A stretch of 57,447 bases of DNA from an uncultured Eubacteriales bacterium (lineage in GTDB: Bacteria > Bacillota > Clostridia > Christensenellales > CAG-138): positions 1 to 57,447 of the forward strand of contig ONLX01000025.1 of the NCBI GenBank assembly GCA_900318765.1. Reading direction: 5' to 3'. The position numbers and the translations under genes are program-made. Below, in pieces: positions 28,520-50,651 of this stretch (within the stretch, counting starts at the first letter, position 1; each line of letters opens with the position of its first letter). The notes below the pieces were generated by a model, which did no database searches, was not told the DNA's origin, and was given only the letters and a program-made list of their open reading frames with translations.

Positions 28520-28520
28520 A

Positions 28521-31600: not shown

Positions 31601-33799
31601 TCACGCGCTTGGCGCAGGGCGATCGATCCGCTGCCGTTCGACCAGTTCGGCAAACGCTCCGTTTTGGGCAATCAGTTTCTCGTATGTCCCGTCCTCCAGG
31701 ATCGTTCCGCCGTCCAGCAGCAGAATCCGATCGCAGTTGCGGATCGTGCTGAGTCGGTGCGCGATCACGATGCGCGTGCATTTGAGCCGATCGAGCGCTT
31801 CACTGACCTGCTTCTGCGTCTTGTTGTCGAGTGCGGACGTCGCCTCGTCAAGCACCAGAATCTTTGGGCTCGACGCAACCGCGCGCGCGATCATCAATCG
31901 CTGCTTCTGCCCGCCGGAGATTCCGCCCTGCCCTTCCGAGATCAACGTCTGCATGCCCATCGGCATCTCCCGGATATCCTCGGCGATCCCCGCAATTTCG
32001 GCTGCCTTCCATGCATCGTCCAACGTCGCATACGGCGCGGAGATCGTAATGTTCGAGAAGATGTCCCCTTGGAACAACTGTCCGTTCTGCGTGACCACGC
32101 CCATAAATTTGCGTACAGACCGCGGATCGAGGCTGTTCAGATCCTTCCCGTCAAAATAGACCGCGCCGCGCTGGGGTTTCTCGAATCCGAGCAGCAGCCG
32201 CAGCAGCGTGGATTTCCCGCATCCCGTTCTGCCGACGAGGGCAACGTATTCCCCGGGACGGATTTTCAGCGAAAGATCCTTCAGCACATCCGGGGTGTTT
32301 TCATCGTACCGGAAAAAGACGTGGTTCAGCTCAATCCCGCCGGAGAGCTTCGTCAGAACCTCTTTGCTCCCGGTCACCTCCGGTTCGGTGTTCAGAATGG
32401 GCTCGGCCATCTCAAGCACCGGCTTCATCTGCGCAAACGCCGTCGCAAGCGACGCAAGCGCGGTAAACGCGCCCATCAGATGACCGTATGACGCCGTAAA
32501 CGCGTTGTAATCTGCTACACTCACATTGGATTGCACCGCGATCAGATACAATGCAATGTTTCCGATCAGCCCGATTGCCGTGAGAAGAACGCCGTCCAGT
32601 TTCAAGAACAGCGGCGGATTGTACTCGAGCTTCGACGCTTCGGAAAAAACGCCTGCCCAGCGGGCGAACGCGCGCTTCTCAGCGCCGGCCAGCTTGATCT
32701 TCTGAATGCCGGAGACCATTGCGTAGCTCAGCCCCCGTTCCTTCGCCAAAAGCTCCATCCGCTTCCGGGAAATGCGAATCCTCGCAAACATCGCAATCGT
32801 GCTGAGCAGCACCGTCGCCAAAATGATGATCAACGAAGGAGCAACGAGCGCGGGCGCGAACCGCGAAATCTGCACCACATACAGCAGCGACAGAATGGAA
32901 GACAGCCCGACCGAAAGGACGTTGCCGATCATCATCTGGCAGAGCGCGCTGACCGACCCGGCGCGGCTTGCCAGTTCGCCGGAGGAGAACCCCCGAAAGA
33001 AGCTCACCGGAAGCGACAGAATCCGCATCATCACGGCCGATTCAACCGCCATCGACGTTTTCGTATGGATCCGTCCCATCAGAAGGGTTCGGACAACGCC
33101 GATGAGCTGGGACGAGAACGCCGCGCACAGCAGAAAGATCGCCGTACCGATCAGTATCGAATAGGATCGGTTGCTCAGCACAGGCCCCATCAAAATGCGA
33201 TACGCCCGCGGCTCGATCATTCCGACGAGCGTGACCGCCAGCGTCGCAATGAGAATCAGCACAAAATCGCTGACGGAAATGCTGTCCTTCATATACAGCA
33301 AAAGATCGGGAATTCCGAGCTTCTTCATCGGCATCGGACGATAGAAGCACACGGCTTCCTCGCAAAAATCCGACGCCGTTTTTTTCGTAATCCGAACGGT
33401 TTCTCCCGTTTTCGGATCGCGATAATGATACCCATGCAGCAGGTTGGGCAGCAGCGCGACCGGATCGTTTCCATCCTTCAAAAACCCGATCATCGGCCCG
33501 AATGCGTCCTTTTGCCAACCAGGCTCCAGCCGAATCGCGCGCGTCATGATGCCGAGAGGACGCAGCACGTAATCCATCTGCTCCTCGGCCGTCTGGATCG
33601 AATCCGGGACCTTCACCGGGGCGCAGCGATAATACTTCAAAATATCGTCGAGCGCTTCCCGCGCAATCGTCATTCGATCCCGCATCAGGTCCGCCACCCT
33701 GCCCCCGAGCACGGATGCAGCGACGCGCACAAACGAATCGTCAAACAGATTCCGATCGCTCTCCATCCGCTGCCGGATCTGTTCGTCAAACCATCCCAT
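31601..33799 (-). CDS. NHLP-type bacteriocin export ABC transporter, permease/ATPase (no peptidase Cys motif seen)
   Basis: MGWFDEQIRQR start typical of this family; GRTGCGKST, ISGGQKQR, DEATSALD. Confidence 0.85.
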   Translation of the reverse strand: MGWFDEQIRQRMESDRNLFDDSFVRVAASVLGGRVADLMRDRMTIAREALDDILKYYRCAPVKVPDSIQTAEEQMDYVLRPLGIMTRAIRLEPGWQKDAFGPMIGFLKDGNDPVALLPNLLHGYHYRDPKTGETVRITKKTASDFCEEAVCFYRPMPMKKLGIPDLLLYMKDSISVSDFVLILIATLAVTLVGMIEPRAYRILMGPVLSNRSYSILIGTAIFLLCAAFSSQLIGVVRTLLMGRIHTKTSMAVESAVMMRILSLPVSFFRGFSSGELASRAGSVSALCQMMIGNVLSVGLSSILSLLYVVQISRFAPALVAPSLIIILATVLLSTIAMFARIRISRKRMELLAKERGLSYAMVSGIQKIKLAGAEKRAFARWAGVFSEASKLEYNPPLFLKLDGVLLTAIGLIGNIALYLIAVQSNVSVADYNAFTASYGHLMGAFTALASLATAFAQMKPVLEMAEPILNTEPEVTGSKEVLTKLSGGIELNHVFFRYDENTPDVLKDLSLKIRPGEYVALVGRTGCGKSTLLRLLLGFEKPQRGAVYFDGKDLNSLDPRSVRKFMGVVTQNGQLFQGDIFSNITISAPYATLDDAWKAAEIAGIAEDIREMPMGMQTLISEGQGGISGGQKQRLMIARAVASSPKILVLDEATSALDNKTQKQVSEALDRLKCTRIVIAHRLSTIRNCDRILLLDGGTILEDGTYEKLIAQNGAFAELVERQRIDRPAPSA

Positions 33800-33819
33800 A
33801 CGAATCCGCCTCCTTTCCG

Positions 33820-36018
33820 CTACTCACTGAGCACGAGGTCGGCATACGCGCCGCCCTTTGCGTACAGTTCTTCATGCGTGCCGCGCTCGACGACGCGCCC
33901 CTTTTCGAGCACGATAATCTCATCGCAGTCGCGAATTGTGCTGAGGCGATGCGCAATCACGATGCAGGTGATCCCGCGATCGCGGATCGCGTTGACAACA
34001 TCATATTCCGTTTTGGCGTCGAGCGCGCTCGTCGCCTCATCGAGAAGAATCACCGAGGGATCCTGCGCAAGCACACGCGCAATCTCGAGCCGCTGTCGCT
34101 GTCCGCCGGAGAGATCCTTGCCGTTTTCGGTGAGTTTGCCGTCGTATCCGCCCGGGCGCAGCATGATATCATCATGAATCTGCGCATCCCGCGCGGCCAG
34201 AATCACCTCAAAGTCCGCAATCGAGCGGTCCCACATCCGGATGTTTTCGGCAATCGTATCCTCAAACAGAATGATATCCTGGTCCACCACCGCAAGCGAA
34301 CCGGTAAACACGCTGCGCGGAATCTCTTCGATCGGCTTCCCGTCGAACAGAATTTCGCCGCTCCACGGCCGGTAAAGTCCGGAAATCAGCTTGCTGATCG
34401 TCGATTTTCCGCAGCCGCTCGCGCCGACGATCGCCACTCGGCTGCCCGGTTTCAGATGCATGGAAAAATCGCGCACAACCGGCTCCCCGAACTTTGAATA
34501 GCCGAATGTCACGTTCTTCAGCTCCACCTCGCCGCGCAGCTTCGAATAGTCCTCCGATTCCGAAAGCGGCTCCTCCCGAACGAACGGATCGTTCGGATAC
34601 TCCATCACGTCCTCGATGCGCTCCATCTGCGTCCGCGTCTCCAGAATCGTCTGCCCCGCGTCGATCAGCGTCATGGCGGGGTTCATAAACTGTGCCAGGT
34701 AGCTCTGGAATGTCGCAATCATACCGACGGTGAAGTTGCCGTCCATCGCAAGACGAACGCCGAAGAACAGCACCAGATAGTTGGCCGCCGTTCCGATAAA
34801 CGCTGGAATCTGTCCGAGCGAAGCGTTCAGCCGCGCGTACCGGACCGCCTGCGTATTCACGGACGCCTGATAGCCCGCCCACTTCGAGAAGAATCCGTTT
34901 TCCGCTCCGGCGGCCTTGATCGTCTCGGTCATGCCGATTCCGGCATAGGTCGCAGCGGACAGCTTCGCCGCATCCCGCATCTGCACGCGCGTGATGTTGA
35001 CGCGTTTTTCCGAAATGTAATTGGCTAAGAACGCATTGCAAAAGACGCTCAACAGGCCGATCAACGTCAAAAGAAGGCTGTATCGGATCATGATGACGAG
35101 GTAAAACACCATCATCAATAGGTTCAGCAAAAACGGAGCGACGGTTTGCACCAATGCGCTCGCAATCGACGCGTTGGACTGTTCGCGCTCCAGAATATCC
35201 CCCGCCATGCGCTGAGAAAAGAATTCCATCGGAAGCCGCAGCACCTTCCAGATGTAACTTGTGCTGCCGATGACGGACAGCTTCCCGTCGATCCGCAGCG
35301 AATAGATCGCCTGAATCATCTCCACGGCAAGCTGCAGAACGCACAGCAGCCCCATGATCGCGATGAACGGGACCAGCCACTCCGGGTTGAGCCCGGTCAG
35401 AAGCCGATCGTAAAACACCTGCGTCATCACCGGGTTTATCACGCCGAACAGGTAGGAGATTGCCGTCGTCAGCATCATAAAGAGGATCGCTGCGCCGGCG
35501 CCGACCAATCTTTTTTTCGCAAACGCAATCGCGCTCTTTGGCTTTCCGCCCGGAACGAATTGCTCCCCGGGCGTCATGCGAAGCACAATCCCGGTAAATG
35601 CACGGTCGAACTCCTCCATCGAGAGCAGTACCGTTCCGCGCGCGGGGTCGTTGATGCTCGCTTTTCCGTTCCGAAAGCCGTTCAGCACAACAAAATGATT
35701 GAAATTCCAATGGATGATGCAGGGAAATTCCGCCTGCTGTTTCAGCATTTGCGGCTCCATGCGATAGCCGTTCGCAGTAAACCCGTAATTGCGGGCGGCG
35801 AGCAGCATGTTTTTGGCGTTCGACCCATCCCGCGAAACGCCGCAGTCAAGCCGTACCTGTTCCAACGGAACCCATTTTTGATAGTATGCCATGACCATGG
35901 CAAGGCACGCCGCGCCGCATTCCAGATCCTCCATCTGCATCACGACCGGCACCTTCGCCGCCCCTTTGCGAACCGGACGCCTGATCCGGTTCCGTTTGAT
36001 CGAAGCTTGCTGTTCCAT
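33820..36018 (-). CDS. NHLP-type bacteriocin export ABC transporter with C39 peptidase domain
   Basis: QMEDLECGAACL (Cys), HWNFNHFVV (His), INDP (Asp), TMD and NBD. Confidence 0.9.
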   Translation of the reverse strand: MEQQASIKRNRIRRPVRKGAAKVPVVMQMEDLECGAACLAMVMAYYQKWVPLEQVRLDCGVSRDGSNAKNMLLAARNYGFTANGYRMEPQMLKQQAEFPCIIHWNFNHFVVLNGFRNGKASINDPARGTVLLSMEEFDRAFTGIVLRMTPGEQFVPGGKPKSAIAFAKKRLVGAGAAILFMMLTTAISYLFGVINPVMTQVFYDRLLTGLNPEWLVPFIAIMGLLCVLQLAVEMIQAIYSLRIDGKLSVIGSTSYIWKVLRLPMEFFSQRMAGDILEREQSNASIASALVQTVAPFLLNLLMMVFYLVIMIRYSLLLTLIGLLSVFCNAFLANYISEKRVNITRVQMRDAAKLSAATYAGIGMTETIKAAGAENGFFSKWAGYQASVNTQAVRYARLNASLGQIPAFIGTAANYLVLFFGVRLAMDGNFTVGMIATFQSYLAQFMNPAMTLIDAGQTILETRTQMERIEDVMEYPNDPFVREEPLSESEDYSKLRGEVELKNVTFGYSKFGEPVVRDFSMHLKPGSRVAIVGASGCGKSTISKLISGLYRPWSGEILFDGKPIEEIPRSVFTGSLAVVDQDIILFEDTIAENIRMWDRSIADFEVILAARDAQIHDDIMLRPGGYDGKLTENGKDLSGGQRQRLEIARVLAQDPSVILLDEATSALDAKTEYDVVNAIRDRGITCIVIAHRLSTIRDCDEIIVLEKGRVVERGTHEELYAKGGAYADLVLSE

Positions 36019-36024
36019 GCGCCG

Positions 36025-36441
36025 TTATTCCTTCCAAAGGAATCGGATCGGCGAGATCGTTTCCAGAACAACCGTTCCGGAATACGTTCCGTCCGGCAGC
36101 GAAATCTGCGCCGAAAGCGCGGCGGTTTGATCGGCATTCCAAAGCACGGAATCGATCGTTGTTTCCGTCCCGCCGAGGCGCAGCGTCATGCCCTCGGAAA
36201 CCTCTGGCTCGCGGTCGGATCGGACCGTGGCCACGGCAATCCCGTTCCGAACGGTGAACTCCGCAGGAACCGTCGTCTCAATCCGTCCTACGATCGCAAA
36301 CACGATCAGTCCCGCCAACAGAACGATCACCGCAATCAACACCATCCAAACGCTCGGATTGGTGACGCGCATATAATCCTGCAGCTGTTCCAGGGACTGA
36401 ATCCGATCCAGATTTTTTTGCCGAAAAAGTTTGTTTTCCAT
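36025..36441 (-). CDS. Short NHLP-system secretion accessory protein (truncated HlyD-like)
   Basis: LFRQKNLDRIQSLEQLQDYMRVTNP plus TM, C-terminal ISPIRFL; 138 aa. Confidence 0.78.
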   Translation of the reverse strand: MENKLFRQKNLDRIQSLEQLQDYMRVTNPSVWMVLIAVIVLLAGLIVFAIVGRIETTVPAEFTVRNGIAVATVRSDREPEVSEGMTLRLGGTETTIDSVLWNADQTAALSAQISLPDGTYSGTVVLETISPIRFLWKE

Positions 36442-36482
36442 GCTATGCTCCTTTGAACGATCCCGCATAAGGCAGATAGTTG

Positions 36483-36511
36483 ATTATACCATATTCCTTC
36501 CCGATTCTCAA
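36483..36511 (-). promoter_or_regulatory. Sigma-A promoter TTGAGA-17-TATAAT (TG extension) for the NHLP export operon
   Basis: Hexamers at 36506-36511 and 36483-36488. Confidence 0.65.
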
Positions 36512-36541
36512 TGCCGCCGCGGAAATTGTCGGATGGATTCG

Positions 36542-36579
36542 AAAAAAACCTGCAAAGAATCGCGTTCTTTGCAGGTTTT
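36542..36579 (-). terminator. Terminator ending the NRPS-ABC operon
   Basis: AAAACCTGCAAAGAA..TTCTTTGCAGGTTTT with a T-run on the minus strand. Confidence 0.75.
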
Positions 36580-36590
36580 CCCGAAAAGTG

Positions 36591-37532
36591 TTATCGTTTG
36601 TCCCGATCGATGAACTCGAGCACCGCGATCGATACGATGGCAGCGACCGCCGTCAGCAGCAGCAGCGCGCCCCAGGTCGTAAGGACATTGTTGATCGTGC
36701 TGGCGTATGCGGCTTTCTGGTTGATCGAGCCGGACCACTGCAAAATCTCATCCATCTTGCCCTGTTGTTCGATGCTTTGAATCAAGGCAAGCACCGGCTT
36801 TCCTTCGGCAAACTCCACATCCTTCAGCCGGAACATCGTATTCCAGAGCGTGACCATCGGAAGCTCATTGAACCGGCCGATCGCGCAGATGCTCTCAATG
36901 CCCCATTTCGAAACGGTCAGCTTCGTGAGCTGCTCGGCAAAGCCCGTCATCTGGAAAAACGTCCCCGAGAAGATGAGCTGAAAGATCAGCAAAAACGGCA
37001 TCACGGTCATCGCGGTCGTCGTCGTCCGGACGATCGAGGAGATCATCAGCGCAAGCATATCCGCCGCGAACGTGATCAGCAGGATCGTGATGCCGAGATC
37101 GACGATGCCCCACGGCGTTACAACGCCCTGCACGGGGAAGGATACGCCTGCGATTCTGCAGATCAGAAGCGTCACGATCGTCTGCACGAGGCAGAGGATC
37201 AGCTGATAGATCATATGCGCCGCAATGTACGAAGAGATATGCAGCCCCGCGCGATGCTCATGCTTGATCGTTTTCCGCTCGCGGCAAACGACCTGAATCG
37301 AGTTGAAGAACCCGTTCCAGATGCAGGCGCACGCGAGCGCGAACGCGCCGTTCGTCGTCCCCTCCTGCGTTCTGAACAGATTTCCGCCGACAACGAACGT
37401 CACAACGGCGGCGATCACCGCGCCGAGCGGGATAACCTTCCAGTCGCTCTGATAAACGAACATGCGCAGCAGCTTGCAAAGATAGATCCGTGTCTGCGCG
37501 AGCCTTCCGTTCCGTTTCAGTTCCGTATTCAT
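36591..37532 (-). CDS. ABC-2/ABCG-type transporter permease
   Basis: WNGFFNSIQVVCRER, PFLLIFQLIFSG, multiple TM segments; ATGA overlap. Confidence 0.85.
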   Translation of the reverse strand: MNTELKRNGRLAQTRIYLCKLLRMFVYQSDWKVIPLGAVIAAVVTFVVGGNLFRTQEGTTNGAFALACACIWNGFFNSIQVVCRERKTIKHEHRAGLHISSYIAAHMIYQLILCLVQTIVTLLICRIAGVSFPVQGVVTPWGIVDLGITILLITFAADMLALMISSIVRTTTTAMTVMPFLLIFQLIFSGTFFQMTGFAEQLTKLTVSKWGIESICAIGRFNELPMVTLWNTMFRLKDVEFAEGKPVLALIQSIEQQGKMDEILQWSGSINQKAAYASTINNVLTTWGALLLLTAVAAIVSIAVLEFIDRDKR

Positions 37533-38914
37533 TCCGCAGCGCCCCCTTTCCGCGTTGCGGCAAACAGCTCCGCGTAGTGCTCCGCAAGGCCTTCGCCGCC
37601 CTCCTCCTTCTGATTGATCGACATGAGGATTCCCTCCATCGTGTCCTTATGGAAAAACGCTTTCGCTTCGTCCGGCGTTCCGTAGAACGTCAGGCGGCCG
37701 GTTCTTTGCGAATCCTTGCCGAGAATGATAACGCGGTCAAACAGATCGATCACGCGATCCGGCGTATGCGTAATGACGATGACGATCTTTCCGTCGTCCG
37801 CAATCGTGCGCAGTTTTTGGAAAATCTCCCGCGCAATAATGCCGTCCAATCCGGAATCCGGCTCGTCCAGAACGAACAGTTCCGGATCCGAAACGAGCTC
37901 CATCGCAATCGCGATCCGGCGAAGCTGACCGCCCGACTTTTTGGAGACGAGCCCCTCGCTTCCGGACGAAAGTCCCAAAAGCGCCAGAACTTCGTTGACC
38001 CGCTCGATCCGATCCTTTGTTTTTACCGATTTGGGAAGCCGCATCTCGGCCGCGTCGTCCACCGTGTACAGCACGGTATCGTTGCCCCGCATCAGGTTTT
38101 GCTGCGGAACAAATCCGATCCGATACTTCATATCCGCACCGTCGTGATACACATCCCTTCCGTTCAGAACGATCTTCGCATCGGCTTTTTCGTAGCCGAT
38201 GACCGCATTCACAAACGTCGTCTTACCGGCGCCGGATCCGCCGAGCAGCAGCACCATCGAACCGTTCGGCACGGTCATCGCGATATCGCGAAGCAGATGA
38301 TGTGTTTTCCCGAATTCCCGCACCTTGCGTTCCCGGATGTTCACATAAAGACCCGTCTTCGGAATCGTATCCGTTGTCTCCGAATCGGGCACGATCGCCT
38401 TGGACTCCGCTTCCGCCCGTTCCTCTGCCGCCTGTTCCGCTTCGGCCTTTTGCAAGAACTCCGCCTTGGGCTGATATTTTTTCCCGAATCCCAGGATCAG
38501 TATGGTGAGCGATTCAAGCAGGAGGAAGAACACAATCCAGTAATTCTTCCGTTCAAAGACCCGCAGAATCCGCATGAACAAACGAATGCGGAACACAAAG
38601 AGCGCGATATACACGACAAAGTGCAGCAGCATAATCGCAACGGACCAGCCTTGCGACGTCGCATCTACGTTGATCAACGAAATTGCCAGATTCAGCACGT
38701 CGAGCACGCCGCACAGGATGCCGTCAATCGTGTGCTCCAGGGCATTTCCGAGCGCAAAAAAGCGCGCTCCCGGGATCCAGGCCATCCACACGTTCTTCCA
38801 ATGCAGCTTCTTCAGGATTTTCCTTAGGCCAAGCGAAAACAGAAACCATGTGAAAAGAACCTGTGCAGCAGACAGCAGAATGCCGACCCATATCACGGTG
38901 TTTTGCGTATCCAT
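37529..38914 (-). CDS. ABC ATP-binding protein with an N-terminal membrane domain
   Basis: N-terminal TMs with WMAWIP; GGSGAGKT, KSGGQ, FVLDEPDSGLD, ITH. Confidence 0.85.
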   Translation of the reverse strand: MDTQNTVIWVGILLSAAQVLFTWFLFSLGLRKILKKLHWKNVWMAWIPGARFFALGNALEHTIDGILCGVLDVLNLAISLINVDATSQGWSVAIMLLHFVVYIALFVFRIRLFMRILRVFERKNYWIVFFLLLESLTILILGFGKKYQPKAEFLQKAEAEQAAEERAEAESKAIVPDSETTDTIPKTGLYVNIRERKVREFGKTHHLLRDIAMTVPNGSMVLLLGGSGAGKTTFVNAVIGYEKADAKIVLNGRDVYHDGADMKYRIGFVPQQNLMRGNDTVLYTVDDAAEMRLPKSVKTKDRIERVNEVLALLGLSSGSEGLVSKKSGGQLRRIAIAMELVSDPELFVLDEPDSGLDGIIAREIFQKLRTIADDGKIVIVITHTPDRVIDLFDRVIILGKDSQRTGRLTFYGTPDEAKAFFHKDTMEGILMSINQKEEGGEGLAEHYAELFAATRKGGAAE

Positions 38915-38954
38915 CAAGTAACCTCCTAACCTCCTTGCCGGAATCCGTCCGGCT

Positions 38955-40622
38955 TTAAAACAAACTGTGTATGCCCCAGATCATCAGCCCGACCGTGAGC
39001 GCAAGGATCAACAGCACCTTTCCGATCGATCGGTACACAAACGGTACGCGATAATCCATCGTCGCATAAGACGGATTGATCCGGTATCGCAACAGCGGAG
39101 CAAGCAGCTTTCGCTGTTCTCCCCTCAGGTCCCGTTCCGTCCGCGGCTTCCTGCAAAGCACCATCGTCTCCCGCGTGGTTCCGTCGTACGGCGGCCACAA
39201 AAGCTCCGGCGTTCCGGGATCCCCGTCTGTTGCAAACTTCGCCCAAATCTGCATCACCCGCTTCGCAAGCTCGCGGTTGGCCGGTTCCCCCGTATAGACC
39301 GTATCCTCCGTGTTGCCGAACACGTACGCAAGCTCCGCCGCGTGACAGGCGCCGTATTGCCATAGCTTGCTCGGCTGCATCCAGTAGTACAGGAAGACCT
39401 TCCCGCCATGCGCGGCATGCTGCTCGGCCTGCTCGATCGCAGGGAGCCGGAACATCATCTCGGTATAAAACGCGCTGAGCTTCCAGATCCAATGCCCCGC
39501 TTCGCTCCGCAAAAACCGCCTCGCGCGTGCCCGATCCTCCTTCGGAAGCTTTTTGAGATCGTTCTCAAACTTGATCGGAATCCCAAACCCAAACGGAATG
39601 ATTCCGCCGATCTCGCCGATCCAGTAATTCATCTCGTCTGCGTTCGTTCCGATCATCATGTCCACATCCGCCGTCACGCCGTTCCGATACGGTTCGTATG
39701 CGTCCTCCGGGATCAGCTTGCCGTCGCGCTGCGGAAAGTTGTTGTACGGATTCAGCGGCTCATTGATTCGCATCAGCTCCGCTTCCGAAAGCGCGCATAG
39801 ATCGTCCATCGTTTTGGCTCCGCTCGTTTTCAAAAGCCGTCTTGTGAACTCCCGGCACTCCTCCTTCGAAAACGTCAGCGCAACCGAACCGCTTTCGGCA
39901 ATCACCCGTCGGAACAGCCCCTTCGCCTCGGGAATGCACGGCAGCAGCGAAACGCTCCCGCCGCCCGCCGATTCCCCGAAGATCGTGATGTTCTCCGGAT
40001 CGCCTCCGAACGCCGCCGCATTCCGTTTCACCCAGCGCAGCGCCTCGATCTGATCGTACAGGCCGAGGTTCGGCGCGTCCGAATAGGCTTCTCCGCCCGG
40101 GACTTCGGAAAAATCGACAAATCCCATCAGCCCGACGCGATAGCCGACCGTGATCAAAACGATCCCCGGCTGTTCGGTCACGAAGTTCGTTCCGTCGTAC
40201 ATCGGATCCGCCGTTCCGCCCCATCCGTAGGCCCCGCCGTGGAAGAACACCATCACGGGCTTGTGCGCATCGAGGCAGGTACGATTTTTCCATACGTTCA
40301 GGTACAGGCAATCCTCCCCCTGAGGATAAAAGGAAGCTCGCTCGGTCGGCCATTCGCTCTGAATCGGCGATCGCCCGTTGTAGTACGCTTCCGAAACGGC
40401 ATCCGATTCCGGAACAGGCTCCGGCTTTTTCCACCGCAGCGCGCCGACCGGCGGTACGGCAAACGGGATGCCATAAAACACATCGATCGTTCCGTTCGTT
40501 TTGCCCACGAACGTTCCGTTGTGGCACCGCGCAGCAAGTGCGGGATCATATTCTCCCGAGATCGCCCTGTTGACGCCGAACGTCTTTCGGATGCGTTCCC
40601 GTTCCGTTTGCTTTCTGTTCAT
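38955..40622 (-). CDS. Type-B carboxylesterase with a C-terminal hydrophobic anchor
   Basis: GIPFA, EDCLYLNVW, HGGAY, FGESAGG (Ser), GTNADE (Glu), ACHAAEL (His). Confidence 0.92.
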   Translation of the reverse strand: MNRKQTERERIRKTFGVNRAISGEYDPALAARCHNGTFVGKTNGTIDVFYGIPFAVPPVGALRWKKPEPVPESDAVSEAYYNGRSPIQSEWPTERASFYPQGEDCLYLNVWKNRTCLDAHKPVMVFFHGGAYGWGGTADPMYDGTNFVTEQPGIVLITVGYRVGLMGFVDFSEVPGGEAYSDAPNLGLYDQIEALRWVKRNAAAFGGDPENITIFGESAGGGSVSLLPCIPEAKGLFRRVIAESGSVALTFSKEECREFTRRLLKTSGAKTMDDLCALSEAELMRINEPLNPYNNFPQRDGKLIPEDAYEPYRNGVTADVDMMIGTNADEMNYWIGEIGGIIPFGFGIPIKFENDLKKLPKEDRARARRFLRSEAGHWIWKLSAFYTEMMFRLPAIEQAEQHAAHGGKVFLYYWMQPSKLWQYGACHAAELAYVFGNTEDTVYTGEPANRELAKRVMQIWAKFATDGDPGTPELLWPPYDGTTRETMVLCRKPRTERDLRGEQRKLLAPLLRYRINPSYATMDYRVPFVYRSIGKVLLILALTVGLMIWGIHSLF

Positions 40623-40630
40623 CGACTTCC

Positions 40631-43621
40631 TTATTTCTTTCTGCGGAACATGCCCACAATTTTCGCGAAGAAATTCTGTTTGTCCTCAATCTTGCGCCGC
40701 AGTTCTCCGACCGTCAGATCCGTTTGAGACGTGTTCGTAGCGATCGCCTGCGCAACGTGCACAAAGATGTCCTTGAATCGTTCGATGCTCGCATCCTCAT
40801 AGCGGCTCGCCGCGTAATCGATCATCAGGATGAGCCCTTCCGCGCCGTCCAAGATTTCCATATCCAGAATCGTCTGCGACGCGGCCTGGTTCTGCCGGAT
40901 CTCGACGGTCTCAACGTTCATGCCCTCCAGACCGCCCATATCGCGGATATCCTGCTGATACAGCAGGTACGCGGATTCGCCGTTTGCAACCTGGTTGTTG
41001 AGATCCACAAACGGATAGCAGCTGTGCTCAATGCCCTTCTGCACCTGTTCGTGCACGTCGCCGAACAGATCGCGCACGGTGCGGTTGTCGTTCAGCCGAA
41101 CGCCGATCGGCAGATCGCGGAACAATAGACCGACGCTGGACATCATCTGCATATCCTCCCGTCCGTTGTAAATCCACGAGAGCTTGATGTCGTTTTTCCG
41201 ATTGTAATACGAGATCGCAAGCGCGGCCACCGAGATAAAGAACTCGTTCCGGCTGATGCGGTACCGCTTTTCGATCGCGTTCATCTGCCCCTGTTCGAGC
41301 CCGAGCTCGGCAAACAGCTCGCCCATCTCATTCTCGCGCGATTGATGATCGATCTTCGGATGGCTCGACCATTCGACGCCGTTGAACAGCGTTTCAAAGT
41401 AGCGTTTGCTCTCCTCGTAGAACGGCGTATGCACCGCCTCTTCCCGTTGCTGCAGCATCAGGTAATAGAAATCGGGATCCGGCTGCATGCCCATATAGAG
41501 TTTTCCGACGTTGCCCATGAACACCTTCAGCGACGTTCCGTCGAACAGCGTATGATGCACGTCGAAGAACACATACCCGTTCTTCTCCGTTTCGAAGACC
41601 CGGCAGCGATAGAGCCGCCCGCCGATGATCTTGAACGGCTGTACGAGCGTATCCTTGATGCTCTCAAACTCGAATTCGCTGATCTTCTCAACCCGGATTT
41701 CCTCCAAGTTCTCCGGTGTGTACCGCTGCACGATCTCGCCGTCGTCATTGAAGCGGAACGTCGTCAAAATTGCCGGATGATTCCGGATCGCCGTCTGCAG
41801 CGCGTTCGCCAGCTTCTTTAAATCGAACAGCTCTTTATCGATCTTGAGCATCGAGAACAGGTTGTACATCGTGGATTTCGGCGTGTAGAGCTGATAGTCC
41901 ACCATATAGAGCTGCTCCGTCGTCAACGGATGCTCGGTTTTCAAGGCGCTTGCGTTCTTGCTCTCGGGCGATTCGCCGTCGTAGTTCGCGCGTGACGCTT
42001 CATACAGCTTGGCAATCTTTTCGGGCGTGCGACCGCGGAAGATCTCGCTCGCGTTGAGACCGGGCAGCTCGCTCTCCACGATGACCTGGATCGATCCGAG
42101 TGAATCGCCGCCCATCTCGTAAAAGTCGTCGTGAATGCCGACCTGCTCGAGCCGGAGCACCGTCTCCATCGCATGACAGAGCTTTTGTTCGGTCTCGTTC
42201 GTCGGCGCGACATAATCGGTCTTGAAATCCTTCGTGTCGGGCTTCGGGAGCGCCTTCCGGTCGAGCTTGCCGTTTGCCTTCAAAGGCACCTGATCGATAT
42301 GGATATAGTAGGCCGGAATCATGTAGTACGGCAGTCGCTTCATCAGCTCCCGGCGCATCGCCTCCGGGTCCACCGGAACATCGGCCGTGTAGTACGCGCA
42401 AAGATAGCTCTTGCCGTTCTCCTCAAAGCCGCGCGCCGCCGCCCAGTCGATCCCAAGCGTTTGCTTCACGGCCGCCTCAATCTCCGCAGGCTCGATCCGA
42501 TTCCCGTTGATCTTGATCATATCGCCGCTGCGGCCGAGCAAAACGAAGTTTCCGTTCTCATCGCGCCGCGCAAGGTCGCCCGTGTGATAGACGCCGTTCA
42601 CGAATGCCTTCTTTGTCTCCTCGGGCAGATGGATATAGCCGCGCACATAGGGATTCTCAAAGCAGAGCTCGCCCATCTCGCCGTCGGCCACCTCGTTTCC
42701 GTCCTCGCCGATCAACCAGATCTTTGTTTCAACCTCCGGCTTGCCGATCGGGCAGGTTTCATAGGCCCGGTCGATCGGGAATACGCCGACCGCGAACCCG
42801 CTCTCCGAAGCCGCATAGATGTTGATCAGCTCAAGATTCTTGTTGTACAGGTTGTTGGCCGGTTCACTGCCGACGAACAGCATCCGCAGGAACGGTCCGG
42901 TCTGGTTGCCGAGCATCCGGACGTAAGACGGCGTCAAAAACGTGATGGTGATGCGCTTTTCGATAAAGAACATCTTGAGCGCCATCGGGTTCTTGATCGT
43001 TGCGTAGCTGACGATATACATGCGCCCGCCGCAGATGCTGAGCGTTTTGAGCACGACGATGACCGACGCGACAAAGTTCATCGGCGCAAGCAGCGCGAGC
43101 CGGTCCGACCCGTCAAACGGGGTCACGCCGTTTACGCGAATGGAATCGATCGCGCGGGAAAGGTTGCCGTATTCGTGCAGCACGCCCTTGGGGTTCCCGG
43201 TCGTTCCGGAGGTATAGATCGCATACGCAGCGTCATGCGGATCCGCCTGCTCGTACCCCGCAAGTGGAGTGCTGTTCATCACTTCGTCCCAGTTGGCCGC
43301 AGAAAGCTCCAGTTTGCACCCGCAGTCGGAACGAATATACGCAATCCGCTCCGGGGCGTACGTATCCTCCACGAGCGCCCATGCCGCGCCGGCTTTCCAT
43401 ACGCCAATCATCGCGACGACCGGCAGAACGCCGCGCGGCAGATTGATCAGAACAAAATCCTCCCTGCCGACGCCATGCGCTTTCAGATACGCGTACACGC
43501 GCCCGGTCATTTCATCGAGCTGCGCGTACGAAATGCCTTTGGAATGCGCTTCGTCGAACAAAATCGGCATTGCGGCATGCTCCGCCGTATACCGCTCCAG
43601 CAAAGAAAGAATGGTTTCCAT
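40631..43621 (-). CDS. Stand-alone NRPS module A-T-C
   Basis: A: YTSGTTGNPKG, YHTGDL, IKINGNRIE, NGKLDR; T: DFYEMGGDSL; C: HHTLFDG; no TE or reductase domain. Confidence 0.92.
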   Translation of the reverse strand: METILSLLERYTAEHAAMPILFDEAHSKGISYAQLDEMTGRVYAYLKAHGVGREDFVLINLPRGVLPVVAMIGVWKAGAAWALVEDTYAPERIAYIRSDCGCKLELSAANWDEVMNSTPLAGYEQADPHDAAYAIYTSGTTGNPKGVLHEYGNLSRAIDSIRVNGVTPFDGSDRLALLAPMNFVASVIVVLKTLSICGGRMYIVSYATIKNPMALKMFFIEKRITITFLTPSYVRMLGNQTGPFLRMLFVGSEPANNLYNKNLELINIYAASESGFAVGVFPIDRAYETCPIGKPEVETKIWLIGEDGNEVADGEMGELCFENPYVRGYIHLPEETKKAFVNGVYHTGDLARRDENGNFVLLGRSGDMIKINGNRIEPAEIEAAVKQTLGIDWAAARGFEENGKSYLCAYYTADVPVDPEAMRRELMKRLPYYMIPAYYIHIDQVPLKANGKLDRKALPKPDTKDFKTDYVAPTNETEQKLCHAMETVLRLEQVGIHDDFYEMGGDSLGSIQVIVESELPGLNASEIFRGRTPEKIAKLYEASRANYDGESPESKNASALKTEHPLTTEQLYMVDYQLYTPKSTMYNLFSMLKIDKELFDLKKLANALQTAIRNHPAILTTFRFNDDGEIVQRYTPENLEEIRVEKISEFEFESIKDTLVQPFKIIGGRLYRCRVFETEKNGYVFFDVHHTLFDGTSLKVFMGNVGKLYMGMQPDPDFYYLMLQQREEAVHTPFYEESKRYFETLFNGVEWSSHPKIDHQSRENEMGELFAELGLEQGQMNAIEKRYRISRNEFFISVAALAISYYNRKNDIKLSWIYNGREDMQMMSSVGLLFRDLPIGVRLNDNRTVRDLFGDVHEQVQKGIEHSCYPFVDLNNQVANGESAYLLYQQDIRDMGGLEGMNVETVEIRQNQAASQTILDMEILDGAEGLILMIDYAASRYEDASIERFKDIFVHVAQAIATNTSQTDLTVGELRRKIEDKQNFFAKIVGMFRRKK

Positions 43622-43633
43622 GGTGCCTCCCCG

Positions 43634-43930
43634 TTACTCGATCGTCAAAAAATCTGTAAACCCGGTAACCTCGAATATATCCATAATCGTCTCGTTCACG
43701 TGCAGAAGTTTCATGCCGCCCCGCTGCTGCATCACTTTTTTTGCAACAAGCAGCACGCGAAGCCCTGCGGATGAGATGTATTCGAGTTTTTCAAAGTCAA
43801 GCACAAGCGTTTCCACGCCGCTTAGCGCGTCCTTCAGCTCCGCTTCAAGCACCGGTGCGCTGATTGTATCCAGTCTGCCTTTGAGGGCAAGCACCCGTTC
43901 GGTTCCGTTCTTCGTGGATTGGATGTTCAT
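43634..43930 (-). CDS. STAS domain protein (anti-sigma factor antagonist type)
   Basis: GRLDT, LDFEKLEYISSAGLRVL, IFEVTGF. Confidence 0.92.
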   Translation of the reverse strand: MNIQSTKNGTERVLALKGRLDTISAPVLEAELKDALSGVETLVLDFEKLEYISSAGLRVLLVAKKVMQQRGGMKLLHVNETIMDIFEVTGFTDFLTIE

Positions 43931-43963
43931 GCGTTGGTCTCCTTATGAATAATTAATCAATTT

Positions 43964-43993
43964 ATTATACCATCGTGATTCCCCCGAATGCAA
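43964..43993 (-). promoter_or_regulatory. Promoter TTGCAT-18-TATAAT (TG extension) for the STAS-NRPS operon
   Basis: Hexamers at 43988-43993 and 43964-43969. Confidence 0.6.
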
Positions 43994-44029
43994 TATCCCG
44001 TCCTTTTTTTTCGATCGCAGTTTTTTTTC

Positions 44030-44057
44030 TTGACATCTTTTTCAAATATGATAGTAT
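44030..44057 (+). promoter_or_regulatory. Promoter TTGACA-16-TAGTAT (TG extension)
   Basis: Upstream of AAAGGA and ATG 44088. Confidence 0.55.
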
Positions 44058-44087
44058 TTAGGAAGAAAAACAGAAAGGACCAGAATC

Positions 44088-44894
44088 ATGGAAAATTTTG
44101 CGAGCATTCTCTCGGAACTGTTCGACGGCGCGCCGATCGGGCTTGTCGTTGCATACATCATCGTCAGCATCCTCGTCGTCGTTATGGCGATCGTTGCGCT
44201 GGTCATGAAGATCTTAATCGCGGTTCGCTATTGGAAAGCGAACAAGATGCCGATTTCCACCGGTATGACCGGTGCGGACGCGGCGCGCTATGTGCTCGAT
44301 AAGGACGGGCTCACGCACATCAAAGTCAAAAAAGCCGGCTTTATCCGCGGCGCGCTTTTCGGCAACTACTACAACATCTTTACGAAGACGATCTACCTTC
44401 GCAGCATCCTGTTCAAGATCGACGATAAGAAATCCGTCACCGCAACCGCGCTTGCCGTTCAGAAGGCCGGCCTTGCCAAGCTTTGTGAGGAAGGCGATCC
44501 CGCAACCGTAACGCGCAACCGCCTGTCGGTCATCGGCGTCTTCGGCCCGCTGCTCTTCATCCCGGTTCTTTTGATCGGCGTTATCATCGATTTTGTCGTG
44601 CTGCAGGGCAGCATGGTCTTCTCCTCGATCGCTCTGGTACTCAGCGGCTTGCTGCTCGTTGCGGGCTTTATCGTCACGCTTCTGAACATTCCGGTCGAAA
44701 AGAAAGCCAACGATCGCGCGTTGGAGATGATCGAGAAGTACGGCCTCGCCACCGGCGATGAGCTGAAGGGGATGAAGAAGGTCTTCGATACCTACATCAT
44801 CTCGTACGTTTGCGACTTCATCCTCGAAGTGCTCCGTGTCATCCAGTGGATCCTGGAGATTCTCATCAAAGTCTTCGGCAAGCACAGCAACTGA
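44088..44894 (+). CDS. YugP-like membrane zinc metallopeptidase homologue lacking HExxH
   Basis: GMTGADAARYVL, NYYN..KTIYL, IPVE..A..RAL, YI..Y pattern; expected HExGH reads QKAGL. Confidence 0.72.
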   Translation: MENFASILSELFDGAPIGLVVAYIIVSILVVVMAIVALVMKILIAVRYWKANKMPISTGMTGADAARYVLDKDGLTHIKVKKAGFIRGALFGNYYNIFTKTIYLRSILFKIDDKKSVTATALAVQKAGLAKLCEEGDPATVTRNRLSVIGVFGPLLFIPVLLIGVIIDFVVLQGSMVFSSIALVLSGLLLVAGFIVTLLNIPVEKKANDRALEMIEKYGLATGDELKGMKKVFDTYIISYVCDFILEVLRVIQWILEILIKVFGKHSN

Positions 44895-48532: not shown

Positions 48533-49828
48533 CTATTTGCCGACGCAGAAATTCTCAAAGATCCGGTCAAGCAGCTTTTCATCCACATCGGTGCCGGTGA
48601 TGGTGCCGAGATGGTGCGACGCTTCCCTCAGATCGGTAGCGATACAGTCCGGCTCGGTTTGCGAAGAGGCGTGCATCAGCGCCTGTCGGGCGGCCTCGAG
48701 CGCGCGGATATGCCGCAGATTCGTAATGCACGTCGTGTCAAGTTCTCCGGTTCCCGCAACCGAGGTGATGCGTGTTTTCAGCGTCTCAAGCCCCTCCCCC
48801 GTTTTGCAGCTGACCGCAAGATCGGCTGCGACGGTCCCGAGATCCGACTTGTTCGAGATGACGATGCGCCGGAACGCGCGTGTCTCTTCGAGGAGCGCGT
48901 CATCCTCGGGCGTGAGCGGAACGGACCCATCGAGCACGATGAGCAGCAGATCCGCATAGTGCAGCGCGCGGCGGGCGCGGTCAATTCCGATGCTTTCCGC
49001 TTCATCGGAGGCTTCCCTTAAGCCTGCCGTGTCCATGAGCCGCACGGAAACGCCGTTCCATGCCGTGCGTTCATCGAGGACATCGCGCGTGGTTCCGGCG
49101 ACGGAGGTCACGATCGCGCGGTCCTCGCCGAGAAGCGCATTGAACAGTGAACTTTTGCCGACGTTCGGCCGGCCGAGAATGACCGTCCGTACCCCTTCCC
49201 GCAGAAACCGCCCCTGCTGTGAGTGGGAAAGCAGACCGTCGATCTCGCGGATCGCGTCCTCGATCTGCTGCGGGAGCGCGGCATACACGTCCTCCTCGGT
49301 TTCGTCCGGATAATCGATTGCGGCTTCCACAGCGGAACGCGCATCGAGAATCGTTTCTTCGGTGGCGCGGAGCATCCGTCCGATGCTGCCACCGAGCTGA
49401 TGCAGCGCTGCGCGCAGCGACGAATCCGCCTGCGCGTTGATCAGATCCATGACCGCCTCTGCCTGGGTCAGATCCATTTTTCCGTTCAAAAAAGCGCGTT
49501 TTGTAAACTCCCCGCCCTCCGCAGGGCGTGCCCCAAGGTCTAAGAGCGCTTCGGAGACACGGCGCACCGTCCCGATCCCGCCATGACAATGCAGCTCAAG
49601 CATATCCTCCCCCGAATAGCTGTTCGGCGCGGGAAACCAGACCGCCATACTGTCGTCCAGATGCTCCCCCGAATAGCGCAGCGGCGCATAGGTCAGCATC
49701 CGCGGCGTCAGCGCTTTGCCTGTGAGCGCATGCATCACGCCGCACGCCCCGGGTCCGGAGACGCGCAATACCGCAATCGCCCCGCCGACAGCGGTGGACG
49801 GCGCAAAGATTGTATCGTTGTGTTCCAT
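48533..49828 (-). CDS. mnmE: tRNA modification GTPase MnmE
   Basis: GEFTKRAFLNGK, GRPNVGKS, GTTRD, DTAG, NKSD, C-terminal FCVGK. Confidence 0.96.
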   Translation of the reverse strand: MEHNDTIFAPSTAVGGAIAVLRVSGPGACGVMHALTGKALTPRMLTYAPLRYSGEHLDDSMAVWFPAPNSYSGEDMLELHCHGGIGTVRRVSEALLDLGARPAEGGEFTKRAFLNGKMDLTQAEAVMDLINAQADSSLRAALHQLGGSIGRMLRATEETILDARSAVEAAIDYPDETEEDVYAALPQQIEDAIREIDGLLSHSQQGRFLREGVRTVILGRPNVGKSSLFNALLGEDRAIVTSVAGTTRDVLDERTAWNGVSVRLMDTAGLREASDEAESIGIDRARRALHYADLLLIVLDGSVPLTPEDDALLEETRAFRRIVISNKSDLGTVAADLAVSCKTGEGLETLKTRITSVAGTGELDTTCITNLRHIRALEAARQALMHASSQTEPDCIATDLREASHHLGTITGTDVDEKLLDRIFENFCVGK

Positions 49829-49871
49829 ATTCTGTCCCTATGAAAAAAGGCCGCGGAAGCGGCCCGAATGC

Positions 49872-50651
49872 TTATTTCTCCGGCGCAATGACGACGGCGC
49901 GGTTCGGCTCTTCGCCCTCGCTGTACGTCGTCACCCCGCGGAACGATTGCAGCGCGGAATGCAGGATGCGGCGCTCATACGGATTCATCGGCTCCATCGT
50001 AACGGCGCGACCGGTCTTGGCAACACGAACGGCGGTGCGGCGGGCGAGCTTCCGGAGCGTTTCCTCGCGGCGTGCGCGATAGCCTTCCGTGTCGACCGTG
50101 ACTCTGCGGTAGGCATTGTCCTTGCGGTCCTTGTTCCAGTACAGCGAAACGAGATACTGAATCGCATCGAGCGTTTCCCCGCGACGGCCGATCAGCAATC
50201 CATCCGTATCGGAGACGATGTTGAGCCGCAGCCCGTCATCGGTCTCGGCGGCCTGCACGGTCGCATTGATCTTCATTGCCTGCATCAGATCCGCAAGGAA
50301 CAGCGCGGCATCGTTCGTAGCGGCGAGATCCTCGTCATACGCGAAAGCGGGCGTCTCGTCCTTTTTGCGCGGCTCCTGCTTCTTCGAACCGCCCTTGCGC
50401 TCCTGCGAGCGGGGACGATCGTTCTTTTTCGGGCGCGGCTCGGCTTTGGGAACCGTCTCAAACACCGGCATCACGGGAACTTCCCGTTCGGTCAGGCGAA
50501 CGATCGCGTTCTTTGCGCCGATGCCGAAAATGCCCTTGCTCTCCTTCTGCACGGTTTCAATCACGACCTGATCGATCGTGAGTTGCATTTCTTCCAGCCC
50601 ATGGAAAATCGCTTCATCGACGTTCCGGCCGGTAAACTCCATACTTCTCAT
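49872..50651 (-). CDS. jag: Jag/EloR (KhpB) RNA-binding protein
   Basis: Jag_N GIFGIG, KH LIGRRGETL, R3H PMNPYERRILH. Confidence 0.93.
   Translation of the reverse strand: MRSMEFTGRNVDEAIFHGLEEMQLTIDQVVIETVQKESKGIFGIGAKNAIVRLTEREVPVMPVFETVPKAEPRPKKNDRPRSQERKGGSKKQEPRKKDETPAFAYDEDLAATNDAALFLADLMQAMKINATVQAAETDDGLRLNIVSDTDGLLIGRRGETLDAIQYLVSLYWNKDRKDNAYRRVTVDTEGYRARREETLRKLARRTAVRVAKTGRAVTMEPMNPYERRILHSALQSFRGVTTYSEGEEPNRAVVIAPEK

Follow-up and report, generated by a model that had tools for sequence, protein, structure and literature searches.

A conserved A-T-C synthetase of ruminant-gut Clostridia and its esterase, pump and STAS neighbors

This report concerns a five-gene operon on the minus strand of a 57,447-nucleotide (nt) stretch of DNA, contig ONLX01000025.1 of assembly GCA_900318765.1, from an uncultured Eubacteriales bacterium (CAG-138) whose genome is 79% complete; the whole stretch is called the window below. 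At positions 36591..43993 the operon encodes, in order, a STAS protein, a synthetase with one adenylation-thiolation-condensation (A-T-C) module of the kind found in nonribosomal peptide synthetases (NRPSs), a type-B carboxylesterase, an ABC ATPase and an ABC-2 type permease. Comparison with related loci shows that the conserved unit is the A-T-C synthetase together with either a tail-anchored esterase or a MATE pump, and that in most cases a STAS gene adjoins this unit. An earlier reading made from the letters of this DNA (the sequence-only reading) had proposed a five-gene biosynthetic unit; its account of the gene anatomy stands, whereas the unit does not, because the exporter pair is not co-conserved. 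Few of the NRPS-like genes that turned up here in Clostridia of the ruminant gut are as conserved and as widespread as this synthetase.

Conservation and distribution of the synthetase locus

Neighbors of the synthetase were counted by tblastn over the best 80 of 419 confirmed loci, the loci with enough flanking sequence serving as denominators. An esterase gene starts no more than 200 nt downstream of the synthetase in 50 of 69 loci, a MATE pump gene is found within the same distance downstream in 14 of 73, and a STAS gene ends no more than 100 nt upstream in 32 of 72. In a well-flanked set of 33 loci, which have at least 6 kb on both sides of the synthetase, the esterase lies within 6 kb in 25 loci, the MATE pump in 11, and one or the other in 31. 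Within the same distance a STAS gene is present in 23 of the 33, an RsbW-like kinase (HATPase_c_2) in 10 and a SpoIIE-type PP2C phosphatase in 11, so that 24 loci carry at least one of these three. The window's ABC pair is found near the synthetase in only one well-flanked locus (L076, on the opposite strand). The co-conservation expected for the five-gene unit thus extends to STAS, synthetase and esterase but not to the ABC pair, and the exporter is swapped between loci, being MATE in some and ABC-2 in the window and L076.

The other open reading frames (ORFs) in the flanks of the 33 loci encode varied housekeeping functions, as judged by Pfam for 242 of 248 representatives; the six that were left out are frames antisense to known genes. 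No further NRPS or polyketide synthase was found among the 242 representatives, with the exception of one A-T didomain. That didomain (AMP-binding plus PP-binding) lies with PlsC-type acyltransferase genes at 15962-18609 of locus L059, about 3 kb downstream of the synthetase-esterase pair, and the pair recurs in L061.

The sequence-only reading had regarded the operon as an orphan, a view that the wide distribution of the synthetase overturns. Of 7998 candidates scored in a protein search, 1810 clusters reached E <= 0.001; the best 120 of the 1810 have 994-1001 residues and, apart from the window's own record, are 76-80% identical to the window synthetase. The species-representative genomes gave 456 candidate stretches, of which 419 proved to be relatives. 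The best 80 of these loci are 69-79% identical and carry the labels Ruminococcus, Lachnospiraceae, Oscillospiraceae, Eubacterium and Christensenellales; 28 of their record titles name a ruminant or the word "ruminal", and most of the others are metagenome-assembled genomes of the RUG series. Since two cultured carriers, Ruminococcus sp. JE7B6 and Lachnospiraceae bacterium AC2029, are among the records, the family is open to bench work. The 7.4-kb stretch of the window that holds the operon is present at 85% or more of sampled words in 17 sequencing runs from ten studies; the labels, which one run lacks, read gut, bovine-gut or sheep-gut metagenome, and the source may be among these runs. In its own genus the synthetase is patchy: full-length orthologues, 72-74% identical, occur in 3 of the 24 other genomes drawn.

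The synthetase and its loading pocket

The domain order given by the sequence-only reading, one A-T-C module with an intact HHxxxDG motif and no thioesterase, is borne out by Pfam and by the motifs. Pfam places AMP-binding at residues 13-327 (9.6e-50), PP-binding at 479-537 (4.1e-05; 24.2 bits against a cut-off of 20.8) and Condensation at 562-968 (1.1e-44), and lists neither a thioesterase nor a reductase family, nor any domain C-terminal of the Condensation domain. The carrier motif GGDSLG lies at residues 504-509 and the condensation motif HHTLFDG at 689-695. In an alignment of 74 orthologues from several families, 69-78% identical to the window protein, GGDSL and HHxxxDG are each kept in all 74, as is the A10 lysine, and the A3 motif YTSGTTGNPKG is kept in 72. 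With the catalytic motifs kept across these orthologues, the possibility that the protein is a decayed or inactive NRPS remnant was dropped.

The loading pocket has a feature that the sequence-only reading missed, namely the absence of Asp235, the residue with which amino-acid-loading A domains hold the alpha-amino group of their substrate. In an alignment with LgrA, the FVAS of the window synthetase stands opposite FDGS, which puts valine at the Asp235 position; 72 of the 74 orthologues have valine there, and the remaining two have a gap. The YGPTE motif of the A domain reads YAASE. The ten-residue pocket code is V-A-I-S-L-V-I-F-A-K, with nine positions kept in 71-74 of the 74 orthologues; at the tenth, position 322, 62 orthologues have Ile and 11 have Val. 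A domains that load keto acids are described as having an aliphatic or hydrophobic residue in place of Asp235 (PMC10949194, PMC13643306). Because valine replaces Asp235 and the code is nearly invariant, the enzyme probably loads a hydrophobic acid that lacks an alpha-amino group, which would make it NRPS-like rather than amino-acid-loading; since the module has no ketoreductase, the claim is kept to that class of acid.

The C domain appears canonical in fold. Taken alone it gives weak sequence matches to solved C domains (the best at 9.8e-14), and its predicted structure, with a mean local confidence score (pLDDT) of 80.5, aligns with the condensation domains of LgrA and TycC at template-modeling (TM) scores of 0.70-0.77. 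A Foldseek search with the model returned generic NRPS C domains only, with no pointer to the type of acceptor. Neither a second module nor a free carrier protein accompanying the synthetase was found in the window, and the bacterium's own genome holds three further synthetase matches, all weak and restricted to adenylation-domain residues, of which the best is 33% identical over residues 1-458 and lies in a 534-amino-acid (aa) frame. Because the module has no release domain and no partner module or carrier, release onto a free nucleophile is the economical reading, and the terminal C domain, intact and without a carrier-bound partner, probably acylates a free alcohol or amine. The sequence-only reading had favored the same kind of release, and it had rightly reported that no phosphopantetheinyl transferase (PPTase) gene is present in the window. 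A candidate PPTase is encoded on contig C47 of the same genome, in a 217-aa frame with an ACPS domain at residues 118-191; the position of this domain in the C-terminal half of the frame matches the layout of Sfp-type enzymes.

A stand-alone module of this kind might also make or trim oligo-esters, with a hydroxy acid as substrate, a free monomer or oligomer as acceptor, and the esterase trimming or recycling the chains. The lack of a partner module, the pocket without Asp235 and the position of the esterase as commonest neighbor would all agree with such a scheme, which is otherwise pure conjecture. Poly-lysine synthetase, which uses free lysine as acceptor, has tandem C-like domains embedded in the membrane, whereas the synthetase described here has a single soluble C domain of canonical type. 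Oligo-ester synthesis therefore seems very improbable, and transfer of one acyl group to a free alcohol or amine is the preferred reading of the terminal C domain.

The synthetase ends in a short basic-hydrophobic tail, the C-terminal 26 residues (40631-40710), which resembles NFFxxIxGIFRRKK and carries a net charge of +2 to +6 in all 53 aligned sequences. By helical hydrophobic moment it ranks no higher than the 81st percentile among all 18-mers of the synthetase, and a membrane-binding or docking helix would be a guess.

The esterase

Behind the synthetase, the window operon encodes the type-B carboxylesterase (307.7 bits for COesterase against a cut-off of 27). The full triad and C-terminal anchor that the sequence-only reading gave it recur among 50 orthologues: all 50 keep the serine of GESAGG, the glutamate of GTNADE and the histidine of CHAAE, and 46 have a hydrophobic 19-mer at the C terminus, flanked in many of them by basic residues on both sides. 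An N-terminal hydrophobic stretch of equal strength was found in none of the 50, and there is no signal peptide. Because the hydrophobic tail is C-terminal and no N-terminal counterpart was found, the catalytic domain should stay in the cytoplasm, at the membrane; since basic residues lie on either side of the tail in many orthologues, the exact topology is tentative.

The closest solved relatives are bacterial carboxylesterases, namely 8wdm (6.1e-71), PnbA (1qe3, 2.3e-68) and Est50 (2ogt). These match over nearly the full catalytic domain, at E values of 6e-71 to 2e-68, and share the same Ser-Glu-His motifs. Carboxylesterases of the PnbA/Est50 type are soluble. With 489-527 residues, the three solved proteins have no room for the extra C-terminal tail of the window esterase, which differs from them both in its membrane anchor and in its fixed place behind an NRPS-like gene.

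Two further arrangements involve hydrolase domains. A metagenomic protein (P0181) fuses COesterase with Lipase_3 and DUF3089. In a same-genus locus of the MATE type (L011, G007:C2, positions 8509-18347) the genes encode a 321-aa membrane protein, the synthetase, MatE, STAS, a 222-aa protein of no assigned family, DUF3089 plus DUF218, and a GAF-ABC ATPase. Judging from the P0181 fusion, DUF3089 might take the place of the esterase in the MATE-type layout.

The position of the esterase also bears on a possible role of the cassette in detoxification, in which a harmful rumen acid, such as a plant phenolic or an unsaturated fatty acid, would be conjugated to an abundant metabolite and pumped out, with the outward-facing PP2C sensor turning the system on. 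Such a role would suit the near-confinement of the family to ruminant-gut records, the hydrophobic pocket without an amino-group anchor, the lack of further biosynthetic genes in the cassette and the interchangeable pumps. However, a pocket that is nearly invariant across families fits one defined substrate better than many toxins, an intracellular esterase that undoes the conjugate is hard to accommodate, and the patchy occurrence in the genus (4 of 25 genomes drawn) also speaks against it. Detoxification is for these reasons judged decidedly unlikely.

The STAS protein and its partner switch

The sequence-only reading had counted the STAS protein as a part of the biosynthetic operon, and here the evidence leads elsewhere. 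The protein scores 71.4 bits against a cut-off of 53.45 for TIGR00377, the NCBIfam model for anti-sigma-factor antagonists, its S53 and S54 are invariant, and Y-x-S-S-x-G-L-R is kept in 41 of 41 aligned sequences. Two other STAS genes are present in the genome in addition to the window copy: one on contig C14 beside a kinase gene, which is taken to be the sporulation pair, and one on contig C15 (L107, 5000-5296), 79% identical to the window STAS. The C15 gene lies in an array (L107, 3841-9631) that encodes two paralogous small proteins (about 200 and 172 aa, with no Pfam family), the STAS protein, a HATPase_c_2 kinase and two exporters of the ABC_membrane type. Homologues of the two small proteins sit beside each STAS gene in another genome of the genus (G041), and the C15 kinase has a median identity of 51% to kinases encoded alongside the synthetase elsewhere. 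A phosphatase gene of the SpoIIE family lies in the window itself, 35 kb from the synthetase. Its product falls in the same cluster (c4) as 16 phosphatases of related loci and is 59% identical to a PP2C-kinase fusion in G041 that is encoded beside STAS genes and the ABC pair; two hydrophobic segments around some 170 residues precede its phosphatase domain, and we read it as a membrane sensor. From these relationships, the window STAS is assigned to a partner-switch set of STAS protein, RsbW-like kinase and sensor PP2C rather than to the biosynthetic machinery.

A sigma factor, the usual target of such a switch, is rarely in evidence. Within 6 kb of the synthetase, one is encoded in 1 of the 33 well-flanked loci, as judged by Pfam with E limits of 1e-10 and 1e-8 for 242 of the 248 representatives. 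That locus (L066, 8211-16400) carries on a single strand, with little space between them, genes for STAS, synthetase, esterase, kinase and PP2C, a 145-aa ORF and a gene for a sigma-70-family protein with regions 2, 3 and 4. When the 80 loci were searched by tblastn for this sigma factor, no second copy emerged, and no sigma factor was found among the 45 window ORFs scanned.

It could still be that the STAS protein is an ordinary anti-sigma antagonist, with its sigma factor encoded elsewhere and the synthetase operon either a part of the regulon or simply a neighbor, so that no control would be exerted at the protein level. The standard serine motif, the location of the closest paralogue beside an RsbW-like kinase, and the group-3-type sigma factor that follows STAS, synthetase, esterase, kinase and PP2C in L066 all favor this view, and the cognate sigma factor may be unassembled in a genome of this completeness. 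Set against it are the scarcity of sigma factor genes just described, the C15 array, in which the STAS-kinase pair leads into two ABC exporters and not a sigma factor, and the G041 array, which ends in the ABC pair. We consider such ordinary anti-sigma control somewhat unlikely.

A more direct arrangement would be a phospho-switch that gates the synthetase or the pump itself: upon an outside signal the membrane PP2C would dephosphorylate STAS, and STAS would then bind the synthetase or the pump and so switch the making or export of a rumen-specific acyl ester or amide on or off, with no sigma factor involved. This version is, in our estimate, unlikely. A complex prediction for STAS with the A core (residues 1-362) and the T-C portion (462-975), with alignments supplied, scored 0.03 against a mark of 0.32, which speaks neither for nor against binding, the size limit having required that the A sub-domain (363-461) and the tail be left out. 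Even bolder is the proposal that synthetase and esterase form a writer-eraser pair, acylating and deacylating the same STAS serine that is the target of the kinase and phosphatase. With STAS, kinase and sensor phosphatase so regularly present and hardly any sigma factor nearby, the idea that a synthetase or pump is controlled at the protein level can be put to the test in this family.

The exporter pair and the composite origin of the operon

The two-gene ABC exporter that the sequence-only reading placed downstream of the esterase is confirmed by its ABC_tran and ABC2_membrane domains. The ATPase frame starts at TTG, and an ATG follows one codon in, 7 nt after AGGAGG. Its ABC_tran domain occupies residues 209-354, and hydrophobic stretches are visible in the N-terminal 190-200 or so residues; no Pfam family was found for this extension, and a protein atlas search with residues 1-195 gave no usable match.

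Within the genus the pair has a life apart from the synthetase. Full-length ATPase relatives, 49-60% identical, occur in 5 other same-genus genomes (28 searched), and in three same-genus genomes the gene adjoining the ATPase homologue encodes a permease 62-67% identical to that of the window. In G041 (L118, G041:C4, 8556-15840) the first half of an array encodes the PP2C-kinase fusion, a 204-aa protein of no assigned family, STAS, a similar unassigned protein of 172 aa and a second STAS, and the second half, on the same strand, encodes a 322-aa multi-pass membrane protein, the ABC ATPase (58% identical), the ABC-2 permease (67%) and an M15 D-Ala-D-Ala dipeptidase. No synthetase or esterase was found in the 19 kb examined around this ABC pair. 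The 322-aa membrane protein is 65.5% identical to the product of the gene directly upstream of the synthetase in another same-genus genome (G018), which in turn is 96% identical to its counterpart in G007.

The phylogenies also separate the parts of the operon. In a tree of 74 synthetases, the window protein falls in a 25-row clade with support of 99 that spans several families and in which every row with a readable downstream gene is of the esterase type. Three synthetase relatives from the same genus lie far off, in a clade of the MATE type, and the downstream gene changed at least nine times on the tree. In a 98-column tree, the window STAS groups with STAS genes of its own genus, at weak supports of 83 and 89. 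The operon therefore looks like a synthetase-esterase cassette with a history of its own that came to lie between a STAS gene and a switch-linked exporter, both of them resident in the genome. In the STAS tree, where support is weak, the end branch of the synthetase-adjacent copy measures 0.27 and that of the kinase-adjacent paralogue 0.019; the longer branch could reflect faster change after duplication.

Several membrane-associated features of these loci would be in keeping with acylation of the envelope. In a scheme similar to the Dlt system, the synthetase would acylate a lipid or wall precursor at the inner membrane face, the esterase-fold protein would pass on or edit the acyl group, and the ABC-2 exporter would flip the carrier. 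The anchor of the esterase, the synthetase tail, which could lie on the membrane, and the membrane sensor PP2C would fit such a scheme, as would the recurrent membrane neighbors, namely BaxI_1 proteins (near the synthetase in 5 of 33 loci) and the 321-aa multi-pass protein, whose gene adjoins that of the synthetase in two genomes of the genus and the ABC pair in a third. Glycolipids and wall polymers are common cargo of ABC-2 permeases. But the flank scans revealed no MBOAT, glycosyltransferase or lipid-carrier gene recurring beside the synthetase, the commonest pump is MATE, which usually handles small solutes, and the ABC-2 pair accompanies the synthetase in one well-flanked locus only. Envelope acylation is thus quite unlikely, and acylation of a small molecule is preferred.

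Organization and possible expression of the operon

The features of the operon and the window phosphatase are collected in Table 1. Spacing is tight, with gaps of 12, 8 and 37 nt followed by a 4-nt overlap between ATPase and permease. An AAGGAG ribosome-binding site precedes the STAS ATG on direct reading. Spacing, promoter-like site and terminator together suggest that the five genes form one transcription unit, and the sequence-only reading of five packed, co-oriented genes with their own promoter and terminator agrees with the ORFs, the promoter reading and the folding result. A consensus promoter and terminator scan, whose totals were no better than those of shuffled sequences, listed neither the STAS promoter nor the terminator; it places a separate promoter-like site for the next operon (TTGAGA-17-TATAAT, 36511-36483) past the terminator.

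Table 1. Positions of the operon elements and of the distant phosphatase gene in the window
Feature	Position	Strand	Basis
Promoter-like site: TTGCAT (43993-43988), 18 nt, extended -10 TGgTATAAT (43972-43964)	43964..43993	-	direct reading
STAS protein, anti-sigma-antagonist type, 98 aa, serine motif YISSAGLRVLL	43634..43930	-	Pfam STAS 7.5e-14
One-module NRPS-like A-T-C synthetase, 996 aa, basic-hydrophobic C-terminal tail	40631..43621	-	Pfam, LgrA alignment
Type-B carboxylesterase, 555 aa, Ser-Glu-His triad, C-terminal hydrophobic anchor	38955..40622	-	COesterase 2.4e-91
ABC ATPase, 462 aa, N-terminal membrane extension of ~190 residues	37529..38917	-	ABC_tran 1.3e-20
ABC-2 type permease, 313 aa	36591..37532	-	ABC2_membrane 1e-18
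Intrinsic terminator, long hairpin and U7 run	36538..36585	-	-25 kcal/mol, z -5.7, 0/200 shuffles equal
Membrane sensor PP2C phosphatase (SpoIIE family), 545 aa	4976..6613	-	SpoIIE 4.5e-50, residues 345-536

RNA libraries contain matching sequences. In the RNA-Seq run X19, contigs at least 95% alike cover 22 of 30 bins over positions 35900-44300 and fall on parts of all five genes, and one contig of 432 nt spans the ATPase-permease junction. In run X20, which is guessed to be RNA, a 169-nt contig spans the synthetase-esterase junction. Stretches without such contig cover carry no meaning.

Downstream of the operon, a 147-aa ORF at 36025-36468 (-) matches only positions 1-64 of the 421-position model for the HlyD-like protein of NHLP systems, and it is followed by genes for NHLM ABC1 (33820-36018; 916 bits, above cut-off) and ABC2 (31601-33799; 709.3 bits against a cut-off of 709.4). 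Taken together, the genes at 31601-36468 (-) resemble a set for NHLP bacteriocin export in which the HlyD-like gene is short or truncated. A link between the synthetase operon and these exporter genes was considered and dropped, since a terminator and a new promoter lie between them and such genes are found beside the synthetase in 1 of 80 loci. Farther along (22921-31438, -), a gene for a cytochrome c552-type (NrfA-like) protein, together with ResB and CcsA-type assembly genes, adjoins an operon for the Rnf complex. On the other side of the synthetase operon, the MnmE, Jag and YidC genes lie in a row at 48533-51712 (-). This group is usually close to the replication origin, and the locus may be origin-proximal.

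A model for the cassette

The features described above can be combined into a single model. The A domain would adenylate a hydrophobic carboxylic acid without an alpha-amino group, as its pocket suggests, and the acid would be loaded on Ser507 of the T domain, which carries the required motif and would be primed by an Sfp-type transferase encoded elsewhere in the genome. The terminal C domain would hand the acyl group to a free alcohol or amine, and the product would leave the cell through the adjoining pump. At the cytoplasmic face of the membrane, the esterase would either hydrolyze retained product, for dosage or self-protection, or clear a misloaded carrier. The membrane sensor PP2C and an RsbW-like kinase would set the phosphorylation of STAS and in this way gate production or export on an outside cue. 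An ester product is somewhat likelier because the esterase is the commonest partner of the synthetase, and the frequent exchange of esterase and MATE argues that the esterase is an accessory and not the release step. We hold the model as a whole tentatively, with slightly less than even confidence that all of its steps, from acid loading to switch gating, are right.

Several points weigh against the model. The pocket code was derived by hand from one LgrA alignment and from the motif positions of GrsA. The esterase cannot be needed for synthesis where MATE replaces it, as it does in 14 loci, and the downstream gene has been exchanged repeatedly on the tree; likewise, having an esterase as neighbor is no proof that the product is an ester. 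The 120 best longer esterase relatives include no fusion of synthetase and esterase, a kind of blank that carries little weight. Adjacency is the one reason to propose export by the ABC pair, which in the genus is also found apart from the synthetase. Control may be of the ordinary transcriptional kind, because in L066 a sigma factor follows the kinase and PP2C. Finally, RNA libraries can hold DNA and the contigs of X19 and X20 show no transcript ends, which makes their cover of the operon candidate expression.

A pocket that probably takes a non-amino acid, a C domain that would act on a free nucleophile, the lack of other biosynthetic genes and the swappable pumps together point to one small acylated molecule made from primary metabolites. 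It might serve as a signal or an inhibitor, or be an acid that has been detoxified, in an agriculturally weighty ecosystem.

Comparison with known systems

The sequence-only reading recognized no characterized cluster with this layout, and a search of the literature on rumen NRPSs, on STAS proteins with NRPSs and on tyrocitabine, covering the articles themselves, likewise found none. A survey of rumen biosynthetic gene clusters counts NRPS clusters, and the words "condensation", "esterase" and "anti-sigma" are absent from its available text (PMC8241843).

The nearest counterpart by description is TybD of the Lactobacillus iners tyrocitabine cluster, a stand-alone enzyme with adenylation, peptidyl carrier protein and condensation domains (A-PCP-C) that acylates free hydroxyls of a small molecule; the product is exported in its acylated form, and esterases are thought to remove the acyl groups (PMC13235161). 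The window synthetase has the same stand-alone order and apparently builds no peptide, and its acylating role would be similar. The other tyb functions in the portion of that account available here, a tRNA-synthetase-like enzyme, a glycosylation that depends on phosphoribosyl pyrophosphate and a reductase, are neither beside the synthetase in the window nor recurrent in related loci. No TybB-like gene of the tRNA-synthetase fold was found among the 45 window ORFs, and tRNA-synt_1b occurs once in the flanks, in L029. Unlike the tyb case as described, the esterase is here encoded in the operon and would be anchored inside the producer, and a STAS switch travels with the enzyme.

A second counterpart is the fatty-acid-amide pathway of Coprococcus eutactus, made up of the free-standing proteins OaaA, OaaACP and OaaC, which couple fatty acids with free amines (PMC13310621). 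As far as that description goes, the Oaa and window systems share an origin in gut Clostridia, the set of adenylating enzyme, carrier and C domain, an acid that would lack an amino group, a free acceptor and the lack of a thioesterase. Three free-standing proteins in the one case contrast with a single fused 996-aa A-T-C protein in the other, and neither an esterase nor a STAS protein appears in the Oaa account as available. The window C domain has 24 matches among solved sequences (E <= 0.01), none of which is named OaaC, nor is any of the Foldseek matches shown, though the copies searched may predate OaaC. TybD and Oaa are thus likened to the window enzyme by description, not by sequence.

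A similar neighborhood was described in 2010 for a rumen methanogen, Methanobrevibacter ruminantium M1, in which an NRPS within mru0066-mru0071 is flanked by genes for an anti-sigma-factor antagonist, serine phosphatases and MatE, neighbors that the authors read as sensing, regulation and export (PMC2812497). By the same description, the M1 enzyme consists of two C-A-T modules plus a release domain at its end, and no esterase accompanies it; in these respects it is unlike the window system. For the Dlt system, the MBOAT protein DltB has no counterpart among the window ORFs or the flank representatives, and the DltA models score far under their cut-offs.

The regulatory part resembles the classic RsbV/RsbW/RsbU and SpoIIAA/AB/E partner switches, which likewise combine a single-domain STAS protein bearing a phospho-serine motif with a HATPase_c_2 kinase and a PP2C phosphatase. 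The target may differ: a sigma factor is found within 6 kb in 1 of 33 well-flanked loci, and the neighbors are the synthetase, pumps and hydrolases. STAS proteins with other partners are known: MlaB is described as partnering the ABC ATPase MlaF (PMC7367683). Like MlaB, members of the window STAS family adjoin ABC transporter genes, and binding to a transporter would be suggested by analogy only. In sum, the family is an intact and strongly conserved variant of the known stand-alone A-T-C acylating enzymes; its link to a partner-switch set and to swappable pumps is unusual and repeatable.

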